Shown here: positions 8,831 through 14,126 of the stretch, one piece after another
Layout of the letters: every line of letters starts with the position of its first letter
Numbering within the stretch: position 1 is the stretch's first letter
Source of the DNA: a virus
Taxonomy: Duplodnaviria; Caudoviricetes
Length of the DNA: 55,457 nucleotides
Virus record (IMG/VR): IMGVR_UViG_3300033067_001029
Coordinates: 1-55,457 of that record
Direction: 5' to 3' (one strand)
Made by a program: the position numbers and the translations under genes
The notes under the pieces: model-generated
The model's input: only the letters and a program-made list of their open reading frames with translations
Databases searched by the model: none
What the model was told of the DNA's origin: nothing

Positions 8831-10720
8831 ATGGCGAAGCGTCCGTCCATCCCGACTCTCGCCGGGGACATCCTTGACCTCCGGGCCCGCCTGATCGCCC
8901 GTGAACAGCGGATCGAGTCCGAGGTCTACGCGATCCTCCAGTCGATGCTCGACGAGTGGGAGCGGGAGGTCCGCCGGATCCTTGGTGGCGGGTACCGTGG
9001 CACGGTCGAGAGCGCCGTCGCGGGCCGCCGGGCCGTCCTGCTCGGGAGTCTCCGAAAGATCACCGAGCGGGAAGTCCAGGCCGTGCTGGGGATCCTCGGC
9101 TCGGAGGTCGCCGGGGTCTACCGGGACAACGTGTACCGGGTCGCCTCCGCCCTCTCCGGGATGCGGGCCGCGTCGATGACGTCGTCCTCCGTGTCCTTCG
9201 CCGCGATCGACACCCCGGCGATCAAGGCGGCGCTTGCGCGCAAGATTCCCGCGATCTCCGAGCTTCGGGCGATCGCCGCGATCCCGGCCCGAGTTGAGAG
9301 CCTCATGCGGAAGGACCTCGCCCGGGCGATCGCGGACGGGTACCGGGTCGACCAACTGGTCTCCCAGTGGAAGAACCGGGTCGGGGCCGGGGCGACGGTC
9401 CCGCAGGTCCGGGCGCTCGCCCGCACGGCCGTCATGACGGCCTCGAACAACGCCCACCTCGACACCTACCGCAAGAACCGGGCCCTTGTGCCCCGCGTGC
9501 GGTGGGAGGCGACCTTCGACCGGAGGACGTGCATGCGGTGCGGGTCGCTCCACGGGAGGGAGTTCACCCTTGCCGACGCCCCGCCGATCCCGGCGCACCT
9601 CAACTGCATCCTCCCGGGGAACCTCGTCTTACGGGCTTCTGTTCTTGCCGCCGCGAAGTCTCTGTATCGAGGCCGCGTCGTTGAAGTACGAACGGAGGGT
9701 GGGTGCCGGATCTCCGTTACCGAGAAGCACCCGGTACTGACTTCTCGTGGATGGATACGCGCGTCGGAGGTCCGCCGAGGAGATGATCTGGTCAACCACC
9801 CCGGGTCCGAGCGGGAATCTTCGGGGGTCGACCCACACGATCACAATGTCCCAACCGCGATCGAGGAGGTATTTCGTTCGCTTGAAGAATCGGTCGGCGT
9901 GGGCTCCGCTCGCGTGCCACTTTCCCCCGAAGACCTCCACGGCGACGCGGACGGGGTCGAGGGAGAAGTCCACGTTGTATGGGCCGACGGCGGCGTTCCG
10001 GGTGTGGGGCACACCTCGGGCCGCGAGCATTTCCGAGACCGCTTCCTCGATCGGGCTGCGATGATCGAGGGAACGGAGCCTCTGCCTTCCGGTCGCGATC
10101 TTGATGCGATGCTCGAACGACTGAGGCTTTCCGCGTACCGCGTTATGGGCGGCCTCGGTGAGTCGGAGTCGCTCGGCCTTGGTCGCCTTCGCCATGCGTG
10201 TGAACATTGCGGCGGACCTGTTTCTCGGAACTACTCCGTTGGCGATCAGTCTGCGTCGGATAACGCCCCTATCGCACCCGAAGAGTTTCGCGATCGACTG
10301 CTCGCTCTCCCCTGCGGCGTATCTCTTGATTGCGTCGTCGACGTCGATCACTCTTCGTACTCGGGGCATGTCTACGACCTCCAGACGGTTTCGGGGACGA
10401 TCAACTGCGGTGGAGTGATTATACACAACTGCCGGTGCGTCCTGCTGCCCGTCTTCGCGGACCCGTCGCTCAACTCGGCCGTCCACGGCATCGGGGCGTA
10501 CCAGTCCCCGACGGGCGGCACCTACTTCCGCAACAAGGACCGCGACTTCGAGAAGTTCCTCCGGTCCCGGACGCCGGACTTCCGGGCGGACTTCTTCCCG
10601 TCGGAACTCAAGCGGAAAGCCTTTGAGTCCGGCCGCCTGTCGCTGGCCGACATGATCTCCCGGGACGGTTCGATCAAGACCGACGCCGAGGTCCTCCGCC
10701 TTCTTCGCCGACGACCGTAG
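8831..10720 (+). CDS. MuF/SPP1 gp7-like head morphogenesis protein, intein-containing
   Basis: RALARTAV, WEATFDRRTCMRC.LHG, and a PAHLN/CRC motif interrupted by the intein. Confidence 0.9.
   Translation: MAKRPSIPTLAGDILDLRARLIAREQRIESEVYAILQSMLDEWEREVRRILGGGYRGTVESAVAGRRAVLLGSLRKITEREVQAVLGILGSEVAGVYRDNVYRVASALSGMRAASMTSSSVSFAAIDTPAIKAALARKIPAISELRAIAAIPARVESLMRKDLARAIADGYRVDQLVSQWKNRVGAGATVPQVRALARTAVMTASNNAHLDTYRKNRALVPRVRWEATFDRRTCMRCGSLHGREFTLADAPPIPAHLNCILPGNLVLRASVLAAAKSLYRGRVVEVRTEGGCRISVTEKHPVLTSRGWIRASEVRRGDDLVNHPGSERESSGVDPHDHNVPTAIEEVFRSLEESVGVGSARVPLSPEDLHGDADGVEGEVHVVWADGGVPGVGHTSGREHFRDRFLDRAAMIEGTEPLPSGRDLDAMLERLRLSAYRVMGGLGESESLGLGRLRHACEHCGGPVSRNYSVGDQSASDNAPIAPEEFRDRLLALPCGVSLDCVVDVDHSSYSGHVYDLQTVSGTINCGGVIIHNCRCVLLPVFADPSLNSAVHGIGAYQSPTGGTYFRNKDRDFEKFLRSRTPDFRADFFPSELKRKAFESGRLSLADMISRDGSIKTDAEVLRLLRRRP
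9629..10369 (-). CDS. Antisense HTH + NUMOD3-like + Vsr/DUF559 endonuclease nested in the intein (246 aa)
   Basis: SPIEEAV...GPYNVDF...VAVEVFGGKWH...RTKYLLDRGWDIVIVW; GGAGGT 7 nt before the ATG; TATAAT at 10423-10418. Confidence 0.85.
   Translation of the reverse strand: MPRVRRVIDVDDAIKRYAAGESEQSIAKLFGCDRGVIRRRLIANGVVPRNRSAAMFTRMAKATKAERLRLTEAAHNAVRGKPQSFEHRIKIATGRQRLRSLDHRSPIEEAVSEMLAARGVPHTRNAAVGPYNVDFSLDPVRVAVEVFGGKWHASGAHADRFFKRTKYLLDRGWDIVIVWVDPRRFPLGPGVVDQIISSADLRRAYPSTRSQYRVLLGNGDPAPTLRSYFNDAASIQRLRGGKNRSP
10377..10423 (-). promoter_or_regulatory. Antisense -10 box and Shine-Dalgarno for the nested endonuclease
   Basis: + strand ATTATA (10418-10423) reads TATAAT on -; ACCTCC (10377-10382) reads GGAGGT; no consensus -35. 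Confidence 0.7.
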
Positions 10721-10786
10721 GTTGTTTCTGCTAGAAACAACGACCGCCCGCGTGACGCCGTGGGCGACCCGTGGTAGGATTGCCGC

Positions 10787-11320
10787 ATGACCACCCTCGA
10801 CTCGACGAAGTCGTCCTCCGCCGCGAACTCGTACGTCTCCACCGTGGACGAGGCGAACGGGTACGCCGCGACGATGAAGGCCCTCGCCGGGCTCGGGGTC
10901 GACACGTCTGGGTGGGATTCCGTCAACGACGCCATCAAGACCGAGGCCCTTGTCCTCGCCGCCCGCTCGATCGACACGATCGAGTACGCCGGGGAGAAGG
11001 TGACCGAGGAGCAGTCGATGGAGTTCCCCCGGGTCTTCATGAAGAAGATCGTCGACGAGGACGAGATCCCGGACGCCGTGAAGATGGCCCAAGTCGCGGA
11101 GGCGTGCGCCCTGCTCTCCGCCTCCGCGACGGACCCGGTCGCCCGGGCGGTCTCCCGGGGGATCACGTCCGAGAGCGCCGGGGGAGTCTCGTTCACGGTC
11201 GGCAAGGGTGCGAAGAACTCCGCCGCCGACCGGGGGGTGTCCCAGCCCGCGTTTGATATTCTCCGCAAGGCCGGACTGATCCGCCCGGCCGCGACCTCGG
11301 TCTACAACGGCCGGGGGTAA
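10787..11320 (+). CDS. DnaT-like head-tail adaptor/completion protein
   Basis: ANSYVS..EA..Y, QSMEFPR and IPDAVKMAQ motifs. Confidence 0.75.
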   Translation: MTTLDSTKSSSAANSYVSTVDEANGYAATMKALAGLGVDTSGWDSVNDAIKTEALVLAARSIDTIEYAGEKVTEEQSMEFPRVFMKKIVDEDEIPDAVKMAQVAEACALLSASATDPVARAVSRGITSESAGGVSFTVGKGAKNSAADRGVSQPAFDILRKAGLIRPAATSVYNGRG

Positions 11321-11347
11321 GTGGATCGTCCAAGGAGTCCGTGAGCC

Positions 11348-12163
11348 ATGCGAAGCCGCCGTCCCATTCTCAACTGCCTCTCCGTTCTCGCGTTCGCGGG
11401 GATGCCCTTCTCCATCCACTTCGACCGCCCGGATCCCCCGGACGGCGGGGGCGGCGGGGGCGGCAACCCCCCGGTGAACCCGGACCTCGAACGCGCCCGG
11501 AAGGAACTGGAGGAGCGGGACAAGCAGATCGCGGAGATGAACGCGAAGATCGCCGAACTCTCCAAGAGCGTCGTCTCGGACGACGAGAAGAAGCAGCTCG
11601 CGGCGCTCAAGAAGGAGAAGGAGGAGGCCGAGAAGAAGCGGCTCGCCGAGCAGGGTGAGCTGCAGAAGCTCCTCGACAAGGCGAACGCCGAACTCGCCGA
11701 CGCCCGCCGGGCTGCGGAGGAGGCGGACAAGCGGGCGAAGAAGCAGGTCGTCGACCTCCGCCTGACGAACCTCTTCGACCGCGAGATCCCGAAGAGCACG
11801 GACATCCCGATCCAGCAGGTGATCGGGGCCCTCGGCCTCCGGGATTACTTTGTCTACAACGAGCAGTCCGACTCGTTCCGGATCGTCGACCCGCTCACGA
11901 AGACCTGCCCCCGGAACGCCAACGGGACGGAGATGACGCCCGAGGAGTTCATCGCCCACAAGATCAACGGCACGGCCTGGATCGCCGCCGTCCGCCCCAA
12001 GGGCGGCTCCGGCTCCGGGAACGCGAACGGGGGCGGGAGCGGCGTGAACGGCGGGTTCACGTCCGACGACGTCGCGAAGATGAGCATCGCGGAGTTCAAC
12101 CAGAAGAAGAAGGACATCTTCGCCGAGGCGGACCGGAACACCCGCCCGTCGATCAGCCGCTGA
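11348..12163 (+). CDS. Capsid scaffolding protein
   Basis: Long charged coiled coil, Gly-rich linker and C-terminal helix; directly before the major capsid gene. Confidence 0.8.
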   Translation: MRSRRPILNCLSVLAFAGMPFSIHFDRPDPPDGGGGGGGNPPVNPDLERARKELEERDKQIAEMNAKIAELSKSVVSDDEKKQLAALKKEKEEAEKKRLAEQGELQKLLDKANAELADARRAAEEADKRAKKQVVDLRLTNLFDREIPKSTDIPIQQVIGALGLRDYFVYNEQSDSFRIVDPLTKTCPRNANGTEMTPEEFIAHKINGTAWIAAVRPKGGSGSGNANGGGSGVNGGFTSDDVAKMSIAEFNQKKKDIFAEADRNTRPSISR

Positions 12164-12179
12164 CCGTCGGCGAGAACCC

Positions 12180-12223
12180 AAGACCCCCGGGCCCCGTGGT
12201 GGGAGGCCCGGGGGTCTTTCGTT
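12180..12223 (+). terminator. Hairpin terminator
   Basis: 14-bp stem AAGACCCCCGGGCC...GGCCCGGGGGTCTT. Confidence 0.7.
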
Positions 12224-12225
12224 GG

Positions 12226-12253
12226 TTGACAGAATCTTGAGCCCGGAGATAAT
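12226..12253 (+). promoter_or_regulatory. Sigma70-like promoter for the major capsid gene
   Basis: TTGACA-N16-GATAAT; same layout at 16407. Confidence 0.75.
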
Positions 12254-12328
12254 CGGGGCGTAACTGGTTGGGCCGGGGGCGTCAGAGTGTTCTGGCGCAC
12301 GGCCCCCGACCCAAACGGAGTTCAAGAC

Positions 12329-13225
12329 ATGCCGAACGCCATCACCGCCTACGACCCGACCATCTGGAGCAAGCAGGGCATCGCCATCCTGCACGAGAAG
12401 ATCGCGATCCCGAAGCTCTGCCGCCTCGACTTCCAGAACGACCTTGCCCAAATGGGTGACGTCGTGAACACCCGGAAGCCCGCGATCATGACCGCTTCCG
12501 ACGTCGACGACGACAACGGGATCAGCGCCCAGACCCTCTCGGCGACGAACGTCGCGGTCACGCTCAACAACCACAAGCACGCGACCTTCAAGATCAAGGA
12601 CCGCGAGGCGTCCCGGTCCGTCGCGAACCTGATGACCGAGTACATGGAGCCCGCGATGCTCGCGGTCGCCAACGTCCTCGACAAGTCCCTCCTCGCCCTC
12701 TACACCGACGCCTCCAAGCTCATCTCCGTCTCGTCCGCCAACAACTGGCTCTCGCAGGTCACGGCGGCCCGGACGCAGCTCAACAAGAACAAGGCCCCCG
12801 ATGGCAACCGCGTCCTGATCCTCTCCGACGACGACGAGGGCGCTCTCGTCGGCATGGACATCCTGACGAAGGCCAACGAGCGGGGCGACCCCAACGGCCT
12901 CCGTGAGGGGTACCTCGGCCGCGTGCGCGGGTTCGAGACGTACCGCTCCTCGAACATCCTCGGTGCCGGTTCGCCCACGACCCGCCACAACCTCGCCATG
13001 CACAAGGACGCGATCGCCCTCGTCACCCGCGTGCTCTCGACGGCGACGGGCCGCACGGCCGGGGCGGAGCAGATGGTCGCCACCGACCCCGACGCGGGCC
13101 TCTCCCTCCGCGTGACGATCTCCTACCAGCACAACGTCTTCTCGACGATGGTGTCGGTCGACCTGCTCTACGGGGTGAAGACCCTCGACTCGAACCTGCT
13201 CGTGCAGCTCAAGTCGACCTTCTGA
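12329..13225 (+). CDS. Major capsid protein (P22 coat-like, HK97 fold)
   Basis: PTIWSK, GDVVNTRKP, L.KNKAP..NR, G.LGRVRGF and DLLYGVKTL motifs; start placed at the ATG after GGAG. Confidence 0.9.
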   Translation: MPNAITAYDPTIWSKQGIAILHEKIAIPKLCRLDFQNDLAQMGDVVNTRKPAIMTASDVDDDNGISAQTLSATNVAVTLNNHKHATFKIKDREASRSVANLMTEYMEPAMLAVANVLDKSLLALYTDASKLISVSSANNWLSQVTAARTQLNKNKAPDGNRVLILSDDDEGALVGMDILTKANERGDPNGLREGYLGRVRGFETYRSSNILGAGSPTTRHNLAMHKDAIALVTRVLSTATGRTAGAEQMVATDPDAGLSLRVTISYQHNVFSTMVSVDLLYGVKTLDSNLLVQLKSTF

Positions 13226-13264
13226 TCCACCAACGACGGCGGTCACGGGCGTGTTGCCCGAATC

Positions 13265-13304
13265 GGACCCGGCGGGAACGGACCTCGCCGGGTCCTTTGT
13301 TTTT
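13265..13304 (+). terminator. Rho-independent terminator after the capsid gene
   Basis: GGACCCGGCG...CGCCGGGTCC followed by TTTGTTTTT. Confidence 0.8.
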
Positions 13305-13319
13305 GGGTACGATGGCGGC

Positions 13320-14126
13320 ATGACCAGCAAGTCCGCCCTCCACCGTGTCGTCTCGCCCGACGGGACCCGCAAGGCCGATATCCCCGGCGAGATCCTCAAG
13401 GAGAAGCTCCGCGAAGGGTGGACGGTCGACCTGTTCCCGGACGACCGGGGCGAGTTGTACGCCGGGATCCCGGACAAGCACAAAGGGAGGTCCGCGATCG
13501 TGATCGCCTCCGGGCCCTCCTCCGGGATCGTGAGCCGGGACGCCGTGGCCGCGCTGATCGAGCGCGAGAACCTCGTCGTATTCGGCGTCAACGACGCCGA
13601 CCGCTCGATGGGCGGACTCCCGGTGCCCAAGCTCAACTACCTCGTCATCCTCGACGACCACTTGTGGGACGACCGCCTCCCGCACCTGCTCCCGCTCCTC
13701 GCCGCGAACCCGGGGAGCCTGCCCATCACGGCCTTCACGATTCAGGAGGACGTGCGGTACATCTATGCCCCGTTCTCGTTCGTCGAGGACCCCAACGAGA
13801 AGGGACCGGCGAACATCCCGTATGTCGTCGGCCGCCTCTTCCACGGCTGGTCTTCCGGGGTTGCCGCGATCCAGATCGCGATGTGGATGGGGTGCCGCAG
13901 GATCTACCTGCTCGGGCACGATCTCCAGGTTGCCCACGGCCGCACGCACGGGTTCGGGGTCCGCGAGGCCGGTGAGAAGAATCGCAACTACCCCCAGCGG
14001 GCGAAGATGTTCGCGGGGTACGAGACGATCGCGTACCATGCCGCGAAGACCGGGGTCGAGATCATCAACCTTTCCCCGTGCTCCGCGATCTCGTTCTTCC
14101 CCGTGATCCCGCTGTTGAAGCCCTGA
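13320..14126 (+). CDS. Maf/MptE-like (sialyltransferase-fold) glycosyltransferase
   Basis: AIVIASGPS, VFGVND, SSGVAAIQIA.WMGCRRIYLLGHD and IINLS motifs. Confidence 0.7.
   Translation: MTSKSALHRVVSPDGTRKADIPGEILKEKLREGWTVDLFPDDRGELYAGIPDKHKGRSAIVIASGPSSGIVSRDAVAALIERENLVVFGVNDADRSMGGLPVPKLNYLVILDDHLWDDRLPHLLPLLAANPGSLPITAFTIQEDVRYIYAPFSFVEDPNEKGPANIPYVVGRLFHGWSSGVAAIQIAMWMGCRRIYLLGHDLQVAHGRTHGFGVREAGEKNRNYPQRAKMFAGYETIAYHAAKTGVEIINLSPCSAISFFPVIPLLKP

Follow-up and report, generated by a model that had tools for sequence, protein, structure and literature searches.

Inteins and homing endonucleases are a textbook pairing of two selfish functions, and the family described here bears on the route by which a free-standing nuclease gene enters an intein. 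The locus considered lies on a viral contig of 55,457 nt and 67.8% G+C (IMG/VR record IMGVR_UViG_3300033067_001029; Duplodnaviria, Caudoviricetes), referred to below in its whole length as the window. A MuF-like head-morphogenesis gene of this contig carries an in-frame intein, and the strand opposite the intein carries an open reading frame (ORF) for a predicted homing endonuclease. It is probable that the two form a composite intein with a self-contained antisense nuclease cassette, the expression signals of which are spelled by codons of the splicing blocks.

Nucleases associated with inteins

Anti-sense VSR-like homing endonucleases have been reported in full inteins of actinobacteriophage minor capsid proteins (Gosselin, Arsenault, Gogarten, bioRxiv 10.1101/2025.01.02.630785). 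As in the window, the intein is contiguous and interrupts a minor capsid (MuF) gene. That survey covers PhagesDB only and calls the architecture rare, whereas here relatives are found in 129 GenBank records and 384 IMG/VR stretches. The words 'promoter', 'start codon' and 'ribosom' do not occur in its text, and embedded signals are not described in it. The Gordonia phages Vivi2, Affeca, Angelicage, and Keitabear are among our tblastn matches. Affeca and Keitabear are placed by the preprint in an intein cluster discussed under the endonuclease VII-like class; an overlap of its VSR-like cases with our set is presumed, not confirmed.

A split version of the arrangement is known from fractured genes, in which a free-standing Vsr-like or GIY-YIG endonuclease gene lies between the halves of a split intein (Dassa et al. 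2009, PMC2677866). The likeness consists in a nuclease of the same superfamily between the N- and C-parts of an intein, in control regions of its own, and in coding overlap between nuclease and intein (6–69 bp in 15 of its loci). In contrast to the window, where the host frame continues through the nuclease antisense, the host gene is broken in two there and its product is joined by trans-splicing. As control elements, that paper describes an untranslated leader with hairpins and a late-promoter-like TATAAATA, not codons of splicing blocks. The nuclease ORF of the window begins within block F and ends within block A.

The recA gene of Bacillus phage 0305phi8-36 has a group I intron that encodes I-Bth0305I, the prototype of the EDxHD homing endonucleases (Taylor et al. 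2011, PMC3239194; structure 3R3P). This enzyme is the best structural match of the window nuclease and shares with it an N-terminal DNA-binding part followed by a C-terminal Vsr-like catalytic domain. It differs in being intron-encoded and sense-oriented and in having NUMOD repeats in place of the helix-turn-helix (HTH) found here; identity over the aligned core is 17–18%. Nucleases on the opposite strand of inteins are also known from another nuclease family, as anti-sense LAGLIDADG ORFs in the Synechocystis DnaX and Chloroflexus SpoVR-like inteins (Gorbalenya 1998; Gogarten et al. 2002, as cited in 10.1101/2025.01.02.630785).

Thus, the antisense architecture (2025 preprint), its split version (Dassa 2009), and the nuclease family (Taylor 2011) are already known. 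What is new is that expression signals are embedded as a cassette, that this cassette has two architectures, and that it extends beyond actinophages. In the literature covered, which is incomplete, no report was found of promoter or ribosome-binding site signals inside intein splicing blocks.

Organization of the nested nuclease gene

The elements on which the argument rests are the following.

8831..10720, plus strand: MuF-like head-morphogenesis precursor ORF, 629 aa (from the ORF list and translation), which reads uninterrupted across the intein
9605..10429, plus strand: class-1 intein of 275 aa, from Cys1 to V-I-I-H-N and followed by Cys+1 (precursor Cys259-Asn533)
10367..10384, plus strand: core of block F, H-V-Y-D-L-Q, codons CAT GTC TAC GAC CTC CAG
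10415..10429, plus strand: block G, V-I-I-H-N, and C-terminal splice junction, with Asn275 followed by Cys at 10430-10432
9629..10369, minus strand: antisense homing-endonuclease ORF (predicted), 246 aa plus TAA, wholly inside the intein and codon-aligned with the MuF frame
10367..10369, minus strand: nuclease start codon ATG, which is the His codon CAT of block F read in reverse complement
10377..10382, minus strand: Shine-Dalgarno (SD) sequence GGAGGT, complementary to (G)AC CTC C(AG) and separated from the ATG by a 7-nt spacer
10418..10423, minus strand: putative -10 hexamer TATAAT, 48 nt before the ATG and complementary to the Ile-Ile codons ATT ATA of block G
9629..9631, minus strand: nuclease stop codon TAA, which is the Leu9 codon TTA of the intein read in reverse complement

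An initial annotation, made from the letters alone, had claimed a nested nuclease gene, had read the block F codons on the minus strand as GGAGGT-N7-ATG, and had placed a TATAAT in the block G codons ATT ATA about 50 nt upstream. Direct reading of the sequence bears this out, with GGAGGT at 10382-10377, ATG at 10369-10367, and the hexamer at exactly 48 nt. The gene itself is borne out by the 246-aa ORF, by a Vsr-like fold, and by an open frame in 182 of 183 related loci.

Two regions can be delimited in the predicted nuclease.

10241..10342, minus strand: HTH DNA-binding region, residues ~10-43, with helices 10-18, 23-30, and 34-43 in the AlphaFold2 (AF2) model
9827..10054, minus strand: Vsr/EDxHD-like catalytic core, residues ~106-181, from Pfam, alignment, AF2/Foldseek, and profile search

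The HTH is supported by weak Pfam matches (HTH_23, HTH_58, HTH_38) and by PHROG_664, a DNA binding protein family (E 4.6e-5). Over the catalytic core the Pfam scores stay below the curated cut-offs, namely 16.5 against 27 for Vsr (PF03852), 18.8 against 20.6 for DUF559 (PF04480), and 29.8 bits against 38.2 for MTES_1575 (PF18741; E 6.4e-7); precomputed matches to PF18741 or PF04480 exist on several homologs. The 27 nuclease homologs are 36–91% identical to the window protein, and three are named very-short-patch-repair endonuclease in their sources. The AF2 model has a predicted local distance difference test score (pLDDT) of 83.2. Foldseek aligns the model to 3r3p, the catalytic domain of I-Bth0305I (E 7.5e-5, template-modelling score to target 0.65, prob 1.0), and to E. 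coli Vsr (1cw0, E 2.8e-4; 1vsr, E 9.9e-4; both prob 1.0). A profile search with the family finds 3hrl (5e-7), 3r3p (3e-5), and also 1cw0.

The EDxHD composite motif consists of conserved catalytic Asp, His, and acidic residues, which are D196, H213, and D222 in I-Bth0305I (Taylor et al. 2011, PMC3239194); the comparison with the window nuclease was made by conservation within its homologs. S22, R49, E108, N132, and D134 are invariant in the nuclease family, and all five are kept in the window protein. E145 is found in at least 90% of 28 nuclease homologs, and H152 is invariant among the 10 closest. Gene callers place the start of close homologs at M-P-R or M-P-S. Taken together, the Pfam, homolog, AF2, Foldseek, and profile evidence indicates that the nested nuclease is real, and its product is best described as a predicted HTH plus EDxHD/Vsr-like homing endonuclease.

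The window nuclease could also be a relic that is not expressed or not active, the intein persisting by splicing alone. The preprint (10.1101/2025.01.02.630785) reports that most VSR-like cases look vertically inherited, and the window nuclease is a singleton when the 183 loci are clustered at 50% identity, both of which would suit a relic. It is nonetheless a slim possibility, given that the ORF is intact, that the five invariant residues are kept, that the protein is modelled with the pLDDT given above, and that a full-length homolog (P0003) is 91% identical to it. In addition, third codon positions are the most variable over nuclease residues 8-195, which is the mark of purifying selection in the minus frame.

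Many homologs are 283–310 aa long because they have a second N-terminal HTH repeat, and the window protein has a single HTH. In homolog loci with the second HTH, the block F ATG lies 46–117 codons upstream of the region aligned to window residue 1.

Conservation of the two-strand arrangement

A tblastn search of 50,697 phage records with the nuclease yields 129 records, of which 64 are from phages of Salmonella, 15 of Gordonia, 15 of Pseudomonas, 8 of Klebsiella, 6 of Escherichia, and 4 of Vibrio, among others. Every listed match falls under a head-morphogenesis, MuF, minor-capsid, or hypothetical gene. Of 17 GenBank records that were inspected, 16 have the nuclease antisense within a MuF-type coding sequence (CDS), and one, Acinetobacter phage P1068, has it free-standing. 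With a 10-sequence nuclease alignment as query, nuclease relatives were found in 384 IMG/VR stretches (80 kept) and in 97 stretches of a metagenome collection (80 kept). The window protein as single query finds 5 IMG/VR loci at no more than 43% identity. No nuclease relative was found in the genome contig collection scanned. The comparison set comprises 183 loci, with the window included and some duplicates between collections. Blocks F-G are recognisable in 176 loci, which reduce to 131 unique DNA segments, and 126 of these are above the motif score.

The nuclease lies inside the intein in 182 of the 183 loci. In 182 loci, the antisense frame that is codon-aligned with MuF has no stop anywhere along the nuclease match, whereas the other two antisense frames are open in none and have 7–24 stops on average. 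The aligned frame is also open in phages of 36–49% G+C, where an open antisense frame of ~230 codons cannot be an effect of composition. The constant choice of this frame is explained by the fact that, in it, only TTA, CTA, and TCA on one strand are stops on the other.

The division of labour between the two strands can be followed from the nucleotide entropy at each codon position of 48 aligned, back-translated inteins. Variation is highest at the third position of the MuF frame for intein residues 1-55 and 244-275, and at the third position of the nuclease frame for residues 61-248. On this pattern, constraint from the splicing domain prevails at both ends, and constraint from the nuclease in between. 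The last ~45 residues of the nuclease, opposite blocks A-B, drift as the intein permits, and the last 22 are predicted to be disordered in the AF2 model. Therefore, of the initial annotation's statement that the C-terminus of the nuclease overlaps block B, the overlap stands, but the tail follows the intein frame and does not point to selection for the nuclease there.

A rare TTA codon at 9629 had likewise been credited with supplying the stop. The TAA is present, and TTA accounts for 3 of 1405 Leu codons in the contig codon table, which is approximate (ORFs of at least 120 aa with G+C at third codon positions, GC3, of at least 0.85). In the family, however, the stop comes from TCA in 43, TTA in 41, and CTA in 39 of 123 segments. 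Among the 64 segments with a placed N-junction, 60 have the stop at intein residues 2-24 and the other 4 have it 3 codons upstream. As the stop codon and its position vary, the TTA is merely the first permitted stop and not a selected feature.

The sequences of the family are related, so that segment counts are not independent events. Clusters were formed by single linkage on nuclease identity, which tempers the counts and does not remove relatedness. At 70% identity there are 115 clusters, of which 102 have the block F ATG; a strong promoter motif is found in 65.

Start codon and ribosome-binding site in block F

Across the 126 segments the block F consensus is G-H-V-Y-[DN]-L-[QE]. His stands immediately before V-Y-[DN]-L in 95 of them and is encoded by CAT in 93 and by CAC in 2, although CAC is the commoner His codon in the same ORFs (CAT 736, CAC 896). 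Two matched controls, the catalytic His of block B (CAT 22, CAC 69) and the penultimate His of block G (CAT 17, CAC 28), show no such preference. At 60% G+C or more, CAT is used in 29 of 30 segments. A conserved His before V-Y-D is not known to be a feature of the canonical block F.

The His is absent in 31 segments, 2 of which are mis-anchored. In most of the 31, an in-frame CAT occurs 2–6 codons upstream, as in x-F-H-G-[FYP]-V-Y-D-L. Six segments have neither the block F His nor the upstream CAT; CAC or CAA is found there, which reads as GTG or TTG on the antisense strand. Overall, an in-frame antisense ATG lies within seven codons in 111 of 126 segments.

The block F Leu is encoded by CTC, which gives GAG on the antisense strand, in 92 segments, against a background of 1677 in 6506. 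Below 50% G+C it is still CTC in 25 of 28 segments. An SD core is found 4–14 nt before the ATG in 77% of segments and in 19% after synonymous recoding. In exceptions the SD is rebuilt otherwise; for example, a Helicobacter prophage has TCC TTA, which reads as TAAGGAG. The nearby Gly, Val, Tyr, Asn, and Cys codons vary freely.

It could be argued that such motifs are by-products of the amino acids and of the low G+C of the intein, with no selection on antisense signals. Within the window alone there is something to be said for this. GGAGGT-N7-ATG occurs once in the 55,457-nt stretch, here, and at least once in 23 of 100 shuffles, so that singly it is not significant. Preferred codons of the contig (GAC in 956 of 1065 Asp, CTC in 814 of 1405 Leu) give the SD of the window from D-L-Q, which is therefore no sign of codon selection by itself. 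The third codon positions of the intein (GC3 ~0.63, against 0.92 in the exteins) leave A/T-ending codons commoner, with CAT 4 and CAC 9 for His and ATC 6, ATT 1, and ATA 2 for Ile. Against it stand, at the level of the family, CAT in 93 of 95 segments as compared with 24–45% in the His controls, and CTC in nearly all of the low-GC phages. The promoter signals discussed below oppose it further, and we regard it as very improbable and disfavoured.

The initial annotation had named inteins with and without the antisense ORF as the comparison that should decide, and one control can be given. An unrelated intein in a 798-aa ORF of Vivi2, which has 6 stops in each antisense frame, reads E-D-V-Y-D-I-E at this place, with no His, antisense ATG, SD, or hexamer. 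It agrees with the proposed reading and is limited to n=1. That the only control intein without an antisense ORF is unrelated and not at the MuF site weighs on the other side. This control, the second intein of Vivi2 (L184, NC_031239.1, 1195-1935), matches Intein_splicing with 46.9 bits and has a canonical-looking E-D-V-Y-D-I-E-V-E-R-T-H-N-F...V-S-N/T from block F to block G, the slash marking the splice junction.

It is well supported by these codon statistics that the start codon and ribosome-binding site of the putative nuclease gene are written in the codons of block F. The block F His appears to be present, at least in large part, to supply the ATG of the nuclease.

Promoter signals between block F and the splice junction

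Promoter signals were scored in the 111 unique segments with the block F ATG, on the antisense strand from the junction to 21 nt before the ATG. The null consists of 500 synonymous recodings per locus with the codon usage of the ORF itself. Of the 111 segments, 54 have TATAAT and 16 have TACAAT as their highest-scoring -10 hexamer, and the mean -10 score is 7.3 bits as compared with 4.1 bits after recoding. In this target stretch 49 loci (44%) reach p<=0.05, among them 12 of the 16 at G+C of 0.64 or more. The controls stay close to the null. The sense strand of the same stretch gives 1% of loci at p<=0.05, the C-extein 4%, the intein interior 2%, and the N-extein 2%.

The hexamers fall into two arrangements. 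In type A (53 segments) the hexamer lies 18–32 nt before the ATG, mostly 26–29, and is spelled, for example, by TCA TTA TAC of S-L-Y. The corresponding -35 element TTGACA is spelled by block G, as L-S-S-N (TTG TCA AGT AAT) or I-V-K-N (ATT GTC AAG AAT). In type B (57 segments) the hexamer lies in block G itself, 38–55 nt before the ATG and mostly 45–48, and is often preceded by TGn, supplied by the CA at the end of a Thr, Ser, or Ala codon (for I-I-T-H-N, ATT ATA ACA CAY AAY). A perfect TTGACA-16-18-TATAAT is present in 18 of 111 segments, at least 11 of 12 matches in 31, and a perfect TGnTATAAT in 17. Full-promoter matches average 8.1, as compared with 5.2 for the recoded null. An independent scanner reports promoters matching 12/12 in the loci L095 (1263-1291) and L079 (1251-1279).

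Codon choice at block G agrees with these scores. Ile is encoded by ATA in 43 of 66 cases at position -3 and by ATT in 44 of 66 at position -4, while a control Ile at position -8 is ATA in 5 of 58. For the by-product explanation introduced above, the concentration of ATA at block G, the recoding null, and the four positional and strand controls are all adverse, as is the spelling of TTGACA from different amino acids and in different registers (L-S-S-N, I-V-K-N).

The choice of arrangement is related to the penultimate residue of the intein.

Penultimate His, 42 segments: full promoter (at least 10/12) in 1, extended -10 (at least 7/8) in 22
Penultimate Ser, 54 segments: full promoter in 29, extended -10 in 9
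Penultimate Lys, 14 segments: full promoter in 10, extended -10 in 1

This distribution suggests that the promoter architecture tracks the penultimate residue and that the DNA signal may have helped to displace the canonical penultimate His.

Alternatively, the rare A/T-ending codons of the intein C-terminus might act on the sense strand, for instance through slower translation that would aid folding or splicing; the clustering of rare codons at block G (ATA at position -3) would suit such a role. This is hardly credible as an account of the data, as the codons spell TATAAT, TTGACA, and TGn at 16–18 nt spacing and are not just any rare codons, for many of these phages neither CAT nor CTC of block F is a rare codon, and the sense-strand control is at the level of the null.

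An antisense promoter within the intein is thus supported statistically at the level of the family. Several points count against it. The frequencies of the -10 matrix were entered by hand, the same matrix being used for the observed sequences and the null. Neither a promoter of at least 10/12 nor an extended -10 of at least 7/8 is found in 39 of 111 segments, including 19 of the 42 with penultimate His. Relatedness reduces the counts further, as at 50% identity 27 of 31 clusters have the ATG but 14 a strong promoter motif.

The putative promoter of the window

In the window the TATAAT in block G is the single occurrence of this hexamer in 55,457 nt on both strands. It is reached at least once in 32 of 100 shuffles and, like the SD with its ATG, is singly not significant. 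The -10 score of the window is reached by 0 of 500 synonymous recodings, and the score of TGn plus hexamer by a fraction of 0.003 among 300 recodings. The Ile codons that spell it had been described as rare, and they are so on the contig, where Ile is ATC in 887, ATT in 36, and ATA in 14 of 937 cases; His is CAC in 258 and CAT in 26. The lower GC3 of the intein fits a foreign origin, and A/T-ending codons are less surprising there.

Other features of this site speak against a promoter of consensus type. A consensus sigma-70 scanner finds 0 promoter-like sites in 9000-11500. The -35 position falls in the extein and is non-consensus, as the initial annotation had said (TTGACA is matched at 1 of 6 positions by eye); the best pairing reaches 6/12. 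The hexamer is preceded by GTG and not by TGn. The window is type-B-like, and its hexamer lies on block G codons -3/-2, one codon off the commonest register of -4/-3. In the closest relatives with DNA (L024, L025, L051; 42–50% nuclease identity) the best hexamer is of type A, 29 nt before the ATG; the window has none of type A because T-I-N-C-G-G replaces L-Y-I-C-N-G. Recognition of TATAAT by the host is itself assumed, as the nearest known capsid relatives are those of actinophages, at ~30% identity. Actinobacterial housekeeping promoters depend chiefly on a TAnnnT -10, and a site that has no more than a -10 would agree with this. Folding of the predicted 5' leader gives no regulatory hairpin of the kind present in fractured genes (minimum free energy -16.2 kcal/mol, z-score 0.44). 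A search for sequencing runs that contain the stretch lists one, which is not an RNA run.

It is therefore conceivable that the gene and its block F start are real and that the transcript begins elsewhere, at an upstream minus-strand promoter in the C-extein or the next gene or at a promoter of a phage- or host-specific type, the TATAAT of the window being fortuitous. The missing -35 and TGn, the negative scan, the different placement of the hexamer in the nearest relatives, and the 39 segments of the family with no strong motif all favour this, and a phage of 67.8% G+C with no other TATAAT would use promoters of another form. The recoding result for the window is adverse to it, as is the confinement of the family enrichment to this strand and this stretch. 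There is, moreover, no upstream minus-strand gene to give read-through, and a cassette that depended on the extein would be expected to be lost at each homing. On these grounds a start elsewhere seems rather unlikely, though less so than the other alternatives considered.

The hexamer of the window may be either a promoter relocated under selection or an accident. As the promoter of the nuclease it is plausible but unproven, and it would place the start of transcription near 10411. Of the two general claims of the initial annotation, the promoter in a splicing motif holds as a statistical property of the family and is reduced in the window to a -10 element alone, with the deficits listed above. 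Synonymous selection for the nested gene is likewise visible in the CAT, CTC, and -10 enrichment of the family but not in the SD of the window, which its preferred codons produce anyway.

A model of the composite intein

In the reading that we consider probable, a class-1 HINT splicing domain holds in its central loop a complete nuclease gene on the opposite strand, so that the whole would be a composite mobile element. The ATG of the nuclease would be provided by the antisense of the CAT before V-Y-D-L, its SD by the antisense of (G)AC CTC C, and its -10 by the antisense of ATT ATA in block G; the ORF ends at the first TTA in block A. Host RNA polymerase would start a few nucleotides downstream of the hexamer, near the position given above, and ribosomes would begin at the block F ATG to make the nuclease. 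The nuclease would then cut intein-less MuF alleles at H-x-N/C-R-C, and repair would copy the intein together with its self-contained cassette. The MuF precursor, in turn, would be translated straight across the nuclease antisense, since in this frame only the TTA, CTA, and TCA codons of the nuclease would stop MuF, and it would be freed by splicing. As the cassette lies within the borders of the intein, it would travel at every homing event with no need of the extein.

A wider reading goes beyond this and is, in our judgement, somewhat more doubtful than not. It holds that the splicing motifs have themselves been remodelled to serve the antisense gene, so that promoter, SD, and ATG are packed in full into ~23 C-terminal codons of an autonomous two-strand cassette. 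In it, residue choice would follow the DNA signal and not splicing chemistry, with the penultimate His giving way to Ser or Lys where TTGACA is spelled; the two architectures would be a -35 in block G with the -10 between blocks F and G, or an extended -10 in block G; and the His before V-Y-D-L would exist to supply the ATG. If this is true, a consensus early-type promoter directed against a late head gene would provide built-in timing, with the nuclease made early. Convergent transcription could later shut off the nuclease, dampen MuF, or both.

The family would represent a stable intermediate in which both partners occupy the same DNA on opposite strands. Since the signals of the nuclease lie within catalytic splicing blocks, nothing outside the intein would be needed. 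It would be a natural example of regulatory motifs and two protein codes superimposed, would explain the odd block F and G residues of these inteins, and predicts antisense transcription within a late structural gene.

The MuF host gene and its intein

The remaining parts of the host gene are as follows.

8831..9604, plus strand: N-extein, with the C-terminal end ...A-H-L-N, from junction placement; GC3 0.93
9719..9730, plus strand: block B, T-E-K-H, intein residues 39-42, counted from the translation
10430..10720, plus strand: C-extein, which begins C-R-C and includes the stop codon; GC3 0.92

The precursor matches Pfam Phage_Mu_F at residues 160-259 (E 2e-12) as well as PHROG head and packaging families. 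Its match to Pfam Intein_splicing (E 3.7e-8, 33.8 bits) is slightly below the cut-off of 35.8. The intein belongs to class 1, with Cys1 at 9605-9607 and Cys as the first residue of the C-extein. Block B is present as T39-E-K-H42; in an alignment of 48 family inteins H42 is invariant and T39 nearly so. All 126 segments have the block G Asn with Cys after it. At the penultimate position, 45 of them have His, 61 Ser, and 19 Lys, and the window has the canonical His-Asn (I-I-H-N). An AF2 model of the intein, made with the 48 aligned family inteins, is confident over residues 1-65 and 240-275, with pLDDT above 90 at 1-60 and 240-275. In Foldseek this model is matched best by the inteins of Mtu RecA, VMA, and GyrA (E 5.6e-4 to 1.7e-3, prob 0.97–1.0), with 2imz at the top (E 5.6e-4, prob 1.0). 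From the intact essential head gene and the conserved blocks, we infer that the MuF precursor undergoes protein splicing.

The plus frame opposite the catalytic core of the nuclease (9842-9994, intein residues ~80-130) is predicted with pLDDT 82–90 as one helix and two strands, and the remaining linker (residues 130-223) has pLDDT below 50. The segment could be a real small domain of the precursor or an artefact of mirrored alignment conservation. The latter is possible because its consensus E-D-F-H-G-D-G is the antisense of A-V-E-I-F.

Origin of the intein-nuclease unit

The intein is inserted in-frame at the MuF motif H-x-N/C-R-C. It has 56–64% G+C and differs in this from the exteins, which have 68–71% G+C. 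Judged by base composition, the intein-nuclease unit looks recently acquired from a source of lower G+C.

P1068 (L019, OQ689089.1, 1633-3296) is the only one of the 183 loci that lacks the open antisense frame. Its nuclease homolog is free-standing, an annotated CDS of 297 aa with 30.9% identity over residues 4-181, beside an intact intein-free MuF that keeps the C-K-C motif (...P-M-C-K-C...). The two genes are convergent, and their 3' ends overlap by 7 nt. By its arrangement, P1068 looks like a free-standing stage before intein invasion, which fits the origin proposed in the literature, a free-standing nuclease invading an intein. The protein F intein of a Mu-like prophage in Methylococcus capsulatus has been described as one that 'lacks a recognizable endonuclease sequence' (Ward et al. 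2004, PMC517821) and may be worth re-reading on the opposite strand.

Annotation of the locus and its relatives

A minus-strand ORF of 1335 aa (9629-13636) was considered as the gene and rejected, since homologs and gene callers start at the block F ATG. It was dismissed because an open antisense frame is typical of a 68% G+C contig. Shadow ORFs of this kind, 200 aa or longer, are numerous throughout the stretch. On the minus strand 3' of the nuclease stop, no terminator is predicted. On the plus strand, a terminator-like hairpin with a T-rich run lies at 9623-9635, over the nuclease stop and block A of the intein, and is within the chance count (2 found, 1.2 expected).

The finding is also a warning for annotation, because a hidden nuclease lies in 'head morphogenesis' genes in 16 of the 17 records inspected, including those of Salmonella, E. 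coli, Klebsiella, and Pseudomonas phages considered for therapy. The nuclease gene is unannotated in nearly all GenBank records with the nested arrangement. In vB_StyS-sam only fragments of it are called, as the hypothetical proteins ORF42 and ORF43. In the record of E. coli phage Snoke the intein is annotated and the nuclease is not, and several Salmonella records name the host gene 'NAD+--asparagine ADP-ribosyltransferase'.

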